A stretch of 64,000 bases of DNA from Klebsiella phage phi1_146015. Below, piece by piece: positions 40,851 through 40,922 of this stretch; position 1 is the first letter of the stretch, and each line of letters opens with the position of its first letter. Below the pieces are notes generated by a model that was given only the letters and a program-made list of their open reading frames with translations, was not told where the DNA came from and did not search any database. The DNA lies in sequence record PP889466.1; one strand, given 5' to 3'. A program made the translations under genes and the position numbers.

Positions 40851-40922
40851 TAATGCTTGCACTGAATCGTGAGTGTGGTAAAGTACACACATCGAAACGA
40901 AACAGAGAAAAGGAACGAGAAA
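40851..40922 (+). promoter_or_regulatory. Early promoter plus conserved 5' leader, copy 1 of 5
   Basis: TTGCAC, 16 nt, TAAAGT, then leader ACACACATCGAAACGAAACAGAGAAAAGGAAC ending at the ATG. Confidence 0.5.

Follow-up and report, generated by a model that had tools for sequence, protein, structure and literature searches.

Repeated cassettes resembling promoter-early stem-loops, with a 13-nucleotide block locked to the -10 box, in Klebsiella phage phi1_146015

Introduction

Promoter-early stem-loops (PeSLs) are repeated composite elements, described for the T4-type phages RB49/phi1, T4/PST and KVP40/nt-1, in which a strong sigma-70-like early promoter is joined to a stem-loop terminator and whose 3' end is formed by a Shine-Dalgarno (SD) sequence and an ATG (Arbiol et al. 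2010, PMC2839356; Comeau et al. 2014, PMC4122927). The stem may lie between the promoter boxes, over the -35 or the -10 box, upstream, or just before the start, and PeSLs concentrate in hyperplastic regions before ORFans, where they are sites of insertion, deletion and replacement (PMC2839356; PMC4122927). Crossovers of RB49 mini-circles were mapped between the -10 and the SD/ATG, and promoter and terminator activity has been demonstrated only for the PeSLs of phi1/RB49 (PMC2839356). PeSL-like sequences in RB43 were mentioned earlier by the PeSL authors. Here we describe cassettes of this design in a 64,000-nucleotide stretch of Klebsiella phage phi1_146015 (PP889466.1; the whole stretch is called the window), six of which carry a conserved 13-nucleotide (nt) block between the promoter and the small open reading frame (ORF) that follows.

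The original prediction for this DNA recognized repeated early-promoter cassettes and proposed that their conserved leader is a shared post-transcriptional operator, possibly a target of the translational repressor RegA. The cassettes stand and the operator is not supported, and the described class that the cassettes resemble, the PeSLs, had gone unrecognized. The finding is thus real and larger than reported, but it falls in a described class.

Results

Cassette copies and anatomy

All five copies of the original prediction, which lie on both strands (c1 to c5 below), were confirmed in the sequence, and a sixth full copy that it had missed, c6, was found on the minus strand. A hidden Markov model (HMM) built from the six copies, which align nearly free of gaps, retrieved them, by construction, at E 1e-18 to 5e-14 (nhmmer). 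The same HMM found five diverged relatives in the window that have the hairpin and promoter part in common and whose leaders are diverged or different, which brings the cassettes to 11. A generic sigma-70 scan misses the cassettes because their -35 box, TTGCNN, scores low. The features are as follows.

40806-40831, plus strand: intrinsic terminator upstream of c1, AAGCCGTTGCC-GAAA-GGTAGCGGCTT followed by a T-run (terminator scan; -18.8 kcal/mol)
40838-40925, plus strand: cassette c1 (nhmmer E 7.5e-17)
c1 promoter, plus strand: -35 TTGCAC 40857-40862, 16-nt spacer, -10 TAAAGT 40879-40884, discriminator ACACAC
c1 leader, plus strand: predicted +1 A 40891, block 40891-40903, SD AAGGAA, ATG 40923
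40923-41123, plus strand: 66-aa ORFan between the direct cassettes c1 and c2 (no Pfam match)
41115-41197, plus strand: cassette c2 (nhmmer E 3e-15)
c2 promoter, plus strand: -35 TTGACC 41134-41139, weak -10 GAACAT 41157-41162
41145-41168, plus strand: c2 hairpin, GGGGCT..AGCCCC over the weak -10 (-16.8 kcal/mol)
c2 leader, plus strand: predicted +1 A 41169, block 41169-41181, SD GAGGA, ATG 41195
45838-45932, plus strand: cassette c3 (nhmmer E 1e-18), with upstream box AATAGCACTTTTTGCTAAA
45856-45883, plus strand: c3 terminator hairpin, whose stem top and loop contain -35 TTGCAT 45864-45869 (-19.3 kcal/mol)
c3 -10 and leader, plus strand: TATATT 45887-45892, predicted +1 A 45899, block 45899-45911, SD AAGGAA, ATG 45930
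46186-46273, plus strand: cassette c4 (nhmmer E 9e-17)
c4 promoter, plus strand: -35 TTGCTT 46206-46211, -10 TACATT 46229-46234
c4 hairpin, plus strand: GGGTA..TACCC over the -10 (-15.6 kcal/mol)
c4 leader, plus strand: predicted +1 A 46241, ATCGAAAC 46241-46248, SD AGAGGA, ATG 46271
55307-55397, minus strand: cassette c5 (terminator scan match)
55383-55356, minus strand: c5 terminator hairpin, holding -35 TTGCGT 55376-55371 (-18.0 kcal/mol)
c5 -10 and leader, minus strand: TATATT 55353-55348, predicted +1 A 55341, block ATTGAAACGGAAC 55341-55329, SD AAGGAA, ATG 55309
61247-61335, minus strand: cassette c6 (nhmmer E 5e-14)
c6 promoter, minus strand: -35 TTGCAT 61313-61308, -10 TATATT 61290-61285
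c6 leader, minus strand: predicted +1 G 61278, block GTTGAAACGAAAC 61278-61266, SD AAGGAA, ATG 61249
61495-61587, minus strand: diverged cassette, TTTGCAT, 17 nt, TACATT, ..CCGAAACAAAGGAGG.., ATG (nhmmer E 4e-6)
840-922, minus strand: diverged cassette, terminator hairpin containing -35 TTGCAT, -10 TATTTT, leader ..ACTGAAACAAAAGAGGA.., ATG (nhmmer E 6e-6; -20.4 kcal/mol)
104-186, minus strand: diverged cassette, hairpin with -35 TTGCAT, -10 TATATT, other leader GCGCACATACCAAACGGAGG, ATG (nhmmer E 5e-4)
14620-14698, minus strand: hairpin-promoter cassette directly downstream of regA, unrelated leader GGTTGTACACCACTTGTGAGGA (nhmmer E 0.005; -20.4 kcal/mol)
36871-36945, plus strand: consensus-type early promoter, TTGACA, 16 nt, TAAGAT, hairpin over the -10, leader ACAAACAAAGGAG (nhmmer E 0.1)

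Anchored on the -10, a cassette consists of a -35, a spacer of 16-17 nt, the -10, six variable bases, the block, an SD stretch and the ATG. The -35 is TTGCNN, and TTGACC in c2; the -10 is TATATT, TACATT, TAAAGT or GAACAT, the last of these, in c2, being the weakest. The consensus of the block in the six copies is (A/G)T(C/T)GAAAC(G/A)(A/G)(A/C)AC, and its exact form ATCGAAACGAAAC occurs three times in the window compared with 0.00 times in 100 dinucleotide shuffles. Between the block and the ATG, the window copies have 9-19 nt that include the SD, often as AAAGGAAC. The original prediction had counted the ACACAC ahead of the block as transcribed leader, but the 6-nt gap after the -10 makes it the discriminator, which is probably untranscribed, and would place the start at the A of ATCGAAAC.

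Folding predicted hairpins with energies between -15.6 and -20.4 kcal/mol in c2, c3, c4, c5, 840-922 and 14620-14698, and the earlier view that some of the cassettes are fused to terminators is supported. In c3, c5, 840-922 and 14620-14698 the hairpin is a GCCC..GGGC terminator whose upper 5' arm and loop hold the -35 and whose T-tract enters the -10. The -35 of c3 and c5 had been assigned to the descending arm; it occupies instead the loop and the uppermost part of the ascending arm, and the descending arm and T-tract form the spacer, which runs into the -10. The stem spans the -10 in c2 and c4, c1 has a separate terminator 20 nt upstream, and folding of the cassettes gave no clear stem for c6. 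Nor is the copy before 41195 (c2) truncated, as had been thought, for it has its own TTGACC/GAACAT promoter, a hairpin and an intact 13-mer, and only the stretch to the SD is shorter.

Compared with the PeSLs, the window cassettes appear to possess every sequence-level feature of the class: a sigma-70-like promoter with a 16-17 nt spacer in six copies, a stem-loop within or next to the promoter, an SD and the start of a small ORF unrelated to the others, a high copy number, and an association with insertion, deletion and replacement. A Krischvirus (RB49-like) PeSL with the typical polyG/polyC stem even bears the same ATCGAAAC start. The differences are that the -35 is mostly TTGCNN in the window and TTGACA in PeSLs, that the window stems are GCCC/GGGC with the -35 inside the hairpin, and that the +1 to +13 block is more conserved than the promoter hexamers in the window, a feature that is not discussed in the text of the PeSL papers.

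The window comes from an RB43-like Pseudotevenvirus, a T4-type phage. A 7-kb piece around the cassettes shares 98.7% identity with Enterobacter phage vB_EkoM5VN and 96-99% with members of Pseudotevenvirus (RB43-like Straboviridae) from Cronobacter, Citrobacter and Klebsiella. The cassettes fall in two blocks of small hypothetical genes with baseplate genes between them.

about 38.8-47.2 kb, plus strand: cassette block 1, around DNA ligase
about 54.3-64 kb, minus strand: cassette block 2, small hypothetical genes

The ORFs behind the six full cassettes encode 66-96 residues and lie in hypothetical-gene blocks between core genes. A Pfam search with these ORFs gave no match, and blastp of the ORFs against one another gave nothing below E 0.3, which bears out the earlier description of them as unrelated. 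The 80-aa ORF behind c4 (46271-46513, plus strand) has homologues at 35-43% identity in Klebsiella siphophages of ~50 kb (Webervirus) and in Slopekvirus, and small early genes therefore appear to be common to myophage and siphophage families with the same hosts.

Copy number was estimated in a related genome of 98.7% identity, LC589952.1 (178,408 bp), for which bases 1-153,700 were assembled; the remainder consists of late structural genes. The HMM found ~20 sites in this part at which the block directly follows a -10, nearly all of them before small hypothetical genes. There are several further hairpin-promoters of the same type with other leaders, and overall the 153.7 kb hold ~20-29 cassettes. 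As a guard against circularity, hairpin-promoters were also selected with a pattern that ignores everything past the -10, and YGAAAC was found in the same register at 9 of the 12 unique sites so obtained.

Conservation of the start block

Conservation was expressed as mean pairwise identity by segment among the six window copies. The best-conserved segment among these paralogues is +1 to +13 (0.86), followed by the -10 (0.67), the discriminator (0.57), the -35 (0.54), +14 to +26 (0.51) and the spacer (0.36). The stretch after the -10 is therefore more conserved than the promoter hexamers, which points to constraint. Among nine orthologues of c3 (the window, EkoM5VN, D6b, Margaery, leE, RB16, KP27, Lw1 and RB43), CATCGAAACGAAACAGA and the upstream box are invariant, and the stem and loop of the hairpin and the -10 region vary. 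Since the block is kept while the spacer, discriminator and hairpin diverge, copying of whole cassettes does not appear to account for the pattern, and the block would be either under constraint or a target of conversion.

A further element of some cassettes, located at about -62 to -45, is the box AATAGCAC(TTTTT/GAATT)G(C/T)TAAA, whose palindromic arms are TAGCA..TGCTA. It is present in the window at 45838-45858 (plus strand), in LC589952.1 near 142649 and 59079 (both minus strand), in the IMG/VR loci L020, L040, L069, L088, L133 and L139, and in BEK7 and VAC6, and it recurs before the same start block in Drexlerviridae-like contigs. This box could be an UP-like element or a site for a host factor.

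Register and occurrence in other phages

Six nucleotides separate the -10 from the block in each of the six window copies. An IMG/VR scan for CATCGAAACGAAAC gave at least 120 loci with at least 123 occurrences, and among the matches listed TAnnnT stands exactly 6 nt before the A in 84 of 123 occurrences, with ~1.6% expected per fixed offset. This fixed gap places the A of the block at the canonical +1, and we infer that the A of ATCGAAAC is the transcription start. The distance from the block to the start codon, by comparison, varies from 9 to 27 nt, and the SD overlaps the block in some copies. Annotated starts of Escherichia coli promoters in T7 resemble the block (A1, gcc followed by ATCGAGAGG; A3, cac followed by ATGAAACGACAG).

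A start-codon finder returned no start for most of the IMG/VR matches because many of them are pL-type leaders without an ORF. At least ~40 are lambdoid-type contigs in which varied operator/promoter sequences are joined to one start, with a long untranslated leader after it, and BLAST identified these contigs as the pL region of phi80, HK225 and HK639. Across phi80, HK225, HK639 and a large number of uncultured lambdoid phages, the pL promoters comprise at least eight operator/promoter sequences, all joined to CATCGAAACGAAACATCGA.. at +1 (example loci are L142, HK639 34007-34680; L143 and L144, phi80; and L026 2042-2055). Because so many operator/promoter sequences are joined to one start, the mosaic boundary of the immunity region in these lambdoid phages appears to lie at the transcription start. 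The annotation of HK639 has its 'putative pL' stop 6 nt short of the A and places a 'putL-like antiterminator RNA' ~67 nt downstream of the block; in that of phi80, the last base of the O-L region is the C immediately before the A; and neither has a ribosome-binding site (RBS) after the block. The likeness to the window thus extends to an identical CATCGAAACGAAAC in the same 6-nt register right after the annotated O-L or putative pL. It ends there, in that what follows the lambdoid block is no SD and small ORF but a long untranslated leader containing nutL or a putL-like RNA, and the lambdoid promoter has no fused terminator hairpin.

After a -10 and before small unrelated ORFs, the block was also found in Certrevirus (POP15 and F5M1E), Drexlerviridae (BEK7 and VAC6) and Krischvirus, the RB49 group for which PeSLs were first defined, and in POP15 the identity extends over 27 of 27 nt, SD included. 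When one genome per bacterial species was scanned for the pattern, 117 matches were obtained compared with ~69 expected by chance, and 31 of the 80 matches listed, out of the 117, were in Enterobacterales or Vibrionaceae. A 42-mer had no match in 5,426 complete E. coli genomes, a search that matches shorter than ~21 nt would escape, and on this result an origin of the sequence in the host was rejected. Other candidates were set aside as well: a put-type antiterminator, since the putL-like RNA of HK639 lies ~67 nt downstream and the block is outside it; a sigma-dependent pause site, since no hexamer of the block, read from the sequence, has the A2/T6 pattern of a -10-like element; and a start favouring an NAD cap, Hfq (ARN)n, IHF, Fis and CRP sites, none of which fits by comparison of consensus sequences. 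In a literature search, none of the papers covered had the 13-mer ATCGAAACGAAAC in its text.

Homology breakpoints

The part of the window from 35 to 64 kb was compared with KP27 (Slopekvirus), Lw1 and RB43 by means of the ends of blastn high-scoring segment pairs (HSPs). At c1, homology to KP27, Lw1 and RB43 breaks off at 40842-40868, immediately ahead of the -35 or inside it, and it resumes at c2 exactly at 41182, the base after the 13-mer. In place of c1 and c2 these phages have a single cassette with a different leader, and the module 40843-41181 is replaced by 53-75 nt. The 66-aa ORF is absent from KP27, Lw1 and RB43, and only 17 close relatives carry it (tblastn). Because homology stops at c1 and resumes after the 13-mer of c2, the 66-aa ORF together with one cassette appears to be an insertion or deletion bounded by cassette sequence. 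In KP27, Lw1 and RB43, the single cassette belongs to a second leader family, CCCGTAGACAA(G/C)(A/G)AAC, which follows a TAATAT-type -10 and has a hairpin spanning the -10; members were seen in LC589952.1 at 19173 and 29395 (plus strand) and at 68219, 137876 and 148179 (minus strand), as well as at L017 7362-7432, L018 6428-6494 and L019 6453-6541.

Other cassettes behave in a similar way. KP27 and Lw1 cease to match the window at 46248/46250 in c4, where ATCGAAAC ends, and the next gene is replaced by two other ORFs or is missing. The homology of KP27 ends at 55348 within c5, and in Lw1 and RB43 an insertion at the edge of the c5 hairpin (55386-55393) adds ~660 nt of extra genes. At c6, KP27/Lw1 homology ends at 61314/61299, and at the diverged cassette 61495-61587 RB43 homology resumes at 61518. 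Six of the eight cassettes between 35 and 64 kb thus coincide with a homology breakpoint in KP27, Lw1 or RB43, several of them exactly at the block. Overall, HSP ends are enriched in cassettes, which make up 3.2% of the region and contain 17 of the 96 ends (binomial p 1e-8). Among close relatives (96-99% identity), indels were found only inside the 41.9-43.5 kb operon and none at cassettes, and the breakpoints were therefore sought in the more distant KP27, Lw1 and RB43. The direct repeats c1-ORF-c2 and c3-ORF-c4 are candidate mini-circle configurations.

One further observation concerns RB43 (L019, ~6490-6545), in which the SD-ATG region is tandemly duplicated (AACTTAACTTTGAGGATGACATTATGAAC twice) before the orthologue of the gene at 41195. 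This duplication looks like slippage or unequal exchange within a cassette.

Leader RNA and RegA

The six leaders, folded as RNA that begins at the predicted +1 and ends 40 nt inside the ORF, gave 0 to -7 kcal/mol with z-scores of -0.4 to +2.1, and at least the first 12 nt were unpaired in most predicted folds. An Rfam search found no family match for the leaders, and with such weak folds a structured RNA element was rejected.

The regA gene reported in the window is present.

14691-15059, minus strand: regA (Pfam PF01818, E 1e-53), outside the cassette system

The RegA operators described so far are rich in A+U and either overlap the AUG or lie directly against it, and the consensus obtained for T4 RegA by SELEX is aaAAUUGUUAUGUAA (PMC3014915). 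The block has one U in 13 nt, and the AUG-proximal sequence of the leaders is not conserved, so the block is neither A+U-rich nor located at or immediately 5' of the AUG. The block shares with the RegA operators of T4 and RB69 the character of unstructured RNA in the 5' regions of many early or middle mRNAs, but it is U-poor and promoter-anchored and lies at a variable distance from the AUG. A RegA/RegB operator was accordingly rejected on composition, position and distribution, and the proposed shared post-transcriptional operator is not supported.

Discussion

What are these cassettes, and what is the function of the block? In our judgment the cassettes are probably PeSL-type elements that combine a terminator, an early promoter and an RBS, and the block is most likely the first 13 transcribed bases, serving as an extension of the promoter and as a recombination junction. 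The stem-loop would stop transcription arriving from upstream, and the embedded promoter would restart it with the host sigma-70 RNA polymerase straight after infection. The short, unstructured, A-rich leader and the SD would then drive translation of whichever small accessory ORF follows. Since the block is fixed relative to the -10, is variable relative to the AUG, and occurs without an RBS in pL, it is best viewed as a promoter-anchored element, and ATCGAAACGAAAC would represent the start site and the initial transcribed sequence (ITS), read by the host machinery, rather than an RBS operator. Being the longest stretch that is identical between copies, the block may double as a crossover point, by means of which modules of an ORF plus a cassette would be inserted, deleted and swapped between related phages and apparently also between unrelated phages with common enteric hosts. 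Such modules resemble the morons of lambdoid phages, promoter-ORF-terminator inserts in which a small accessory ORF is flanked by transcription signals of its own and is acquired or lost together with them, except that here terminator and promoter are fused into one repeated cassette common to many ORFs. Nolan et al. found that the novel ORFs of T4-like phages are not moron-like in G+C content.

A role for the first transcribed bases has precedents. According to Kammerer et al. (1986, as cited in PMC5961368), the ITS can change promoter output more than 10-fold. In the 'downstream sequence region' of strong early promoters of coliphages (T5 N25, T7 A1/A3), the bases from +1 to about +20 belong to promoter function, and the resemblance of the A3 and A1 starts to the block fits this analogy. 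By the same analogy, the block may improve initiation or promoter escape. Its base-by-base conservation across phage families, however, exceeds the described effects of the ITS, and its role in escape is putative.

Several considerations weigh against this interpretation. The position of +1 would follow from the spacing, the annotated T7 starts and the promoter annotation of HK639. The block has CG at +3/+4 and +8/+9, and YG steps are reported to slow escape in some promoter contexts (PMC5961368), so it is no obvious optimum, and a generic purine-rich ITS needs no base-by-base conservation. Unrelated leaders occur on the same hairpin-promoter (14620-14698 and 104-186), and thus the block is not required for promoter function. 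As to recombination, which we suggest took place within the block, 13 nt is short for homologous recombination, and the 27 nt identical in Certrevirus could reflect recent horizontal spread just as well as selection. The binomial p for HSP ends in cassettes overstates independence because KP27, Lw1 and RB43 share history; 79 of the 96 ends are at ordinary gene junctions, and at some breakpoints the sequences may simply have diverged too far for blastn. The cassettes therefore appear to be preferred, but not sole, module junctions.

Neither an effect of the ITS, nor a role in the RNA, nor passive spread explains why the exact bases are retained across unrelated phages. A broader proposal, which we put forward tentatively and regard as possible but doubtful, is that ATCGAAACGAAAC, with the A at +1, is a discrete start module of immediate-early promoters in many unrelated enteric and Vibrio phages, that each of its bases is preserved because a host component recognizes it specifically, and that it is also a standard junction for the exchange of promoters and cargo. 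The host component could be RNA polymerase during the initial stage of transcription, or a factor whose target is the nascent RNA's first 13 nt. This proposal takes in T4-like, T1-like and rV5-like phages and the phi80-type pL, with T7 A3 as a near relative.

The main rival to an ITS function is a role of the block as RNA, at the extreme 5' end of the transcript. The block might act through host factors as an A-rich single-stranded 5' end that aids translation (S1, stand-by site) or affects mRNA lifetime (RppH, RNase E), and it might also insulate the RBS from the ORF. Such a function would suit a leader whose first bases are unpaired in most folds and which folds no better than shuffled sequence; the block is always at the extreme 5' end, as 5'-end-dependent processes would need, and a context-independent open leader would be useful to unrelated ORFs. 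On the other hand, the starts of phi80/HK639 pL and T7 A3 are far from an RBS, so that translation is no common denominator, and mere lack of structure needs no exact 13-mer. We consider this alternative rather unlikely.

Less probable still is that the block has no function and is a hitch-hiker of a recently spread cassette, kept only as recombination homology. Breakpoints exactly at the block are what one would expect on that account, and the match with the unrelated Certrevirus includes spacer bases that are unlikely to be constrained; small early ORFs are common to Straboviridae and Webervirus, and cassettes with other leaders exist. Yet the spacer and discriminator have diverged while the block has been kept, the block is invariant in the nine orthologues with varying hairpins, and it stands at +1 of many IMG/VR pL-like promoters with at least eight operator sequences. 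The pattern resembles purifying selection or strongly targeted conversion and not recent copying of whole cassettes.

That the conserved leader is an RNA operator for a phage post-transcriptional regulator, through either RegA repression or a RegB-like nuclease, is very unlikely. There is a regA gene in the window, T4 RegA represses ~30 early or middle mRNAs at unstructured sites, and the leaders here are unstructured too; in addition, the SD of the main subfamily, AAAGGAAC, holds GGA followed by A-rich sequence, which is roughly RegB-like. RegB, however, requires GGAG, which the block lacks. The U-poor block has a fixed register to the -10 and a variable distance of 9-27 nt to the AUG, pL leaders that lack an RBS also contain it, and the same block is found in Drexlerviridae, Certrevirus and phi80-type temperate phages, where regA was neither annotated nor found in the stretches examined. 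For these reasons, control by RegA or by any phage-specific RBS operator seems unlikely.

Least likely of all is that the cassettes are MotA-type middle promoters, for which the KP27 GenBank annotation and a Mot box-like TGCTT in c1 and c4 could be cited, given that their spacing is that of a sigma-70 -35/-10 pair (16-17 nt) and not that of a -10 preceded at 11-13 nt by a Mot box ((a/t)(a/t)(a/t)TGCTTtA), that motA and a middle-promoter consensus are reportedly missing from RB43-type phages (PMC1524935; PMC3486835; motA outside the window was unchecked), that the evidence in the KP27 paper is the MEME motif alone, and that the same architecture drives pL in temperate phages. With early-type sigma-70 spacing and motA reported absent from the group, the 'middle promoter' labels in KP27 and some GenBank records are probably wrong. 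In KP27 (NC_020080.1), the orthologous cassettes at 55495-55523, 55842-55870, 71129-71157 and 75271-75299 are labelled 'putative middle promoter; discovered using MEME', and these sites overlap annotated terminators.

If the cassettes are PeSL-type elements, the 'hypothetical' early genes of RB43-like, KP15-like and related therapeutic phages could be grouped into short transcription units bounded by cassettes. The cassettes would also explain where modules of accessory genes are cut and pasted in the RB43-like group, and they hint that regulatory cassettes move between phage families with common hosts. The part most worth following up is the promoter-locked 13-mer found across families: as a 13-nt ITS locked to the -10 in several phage families, it offers a testable case for the contribution of the first bases to very strong promoters. 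As a compact and portable terminator-promoter-leader part, it may also be of use in synthetic biology.

Additional observations

The cassette at 14620-14698 precedes a small ORF ahead of the DNA polymerase gene; the plastic gene-43 region of RB43 had already been flagged in the PeSL paper. The orthologue of the consensus-type promoter at 36871-36945 was found in the relative (record 96039) by the leader-independent scan. The only Rfam match in the window was a tRNA gene at 38599-38671 (plus strand; RF00005, 69 bits), which opens the accessory-gene block and is a tRNA-Gly in the annotation of the closest relative.

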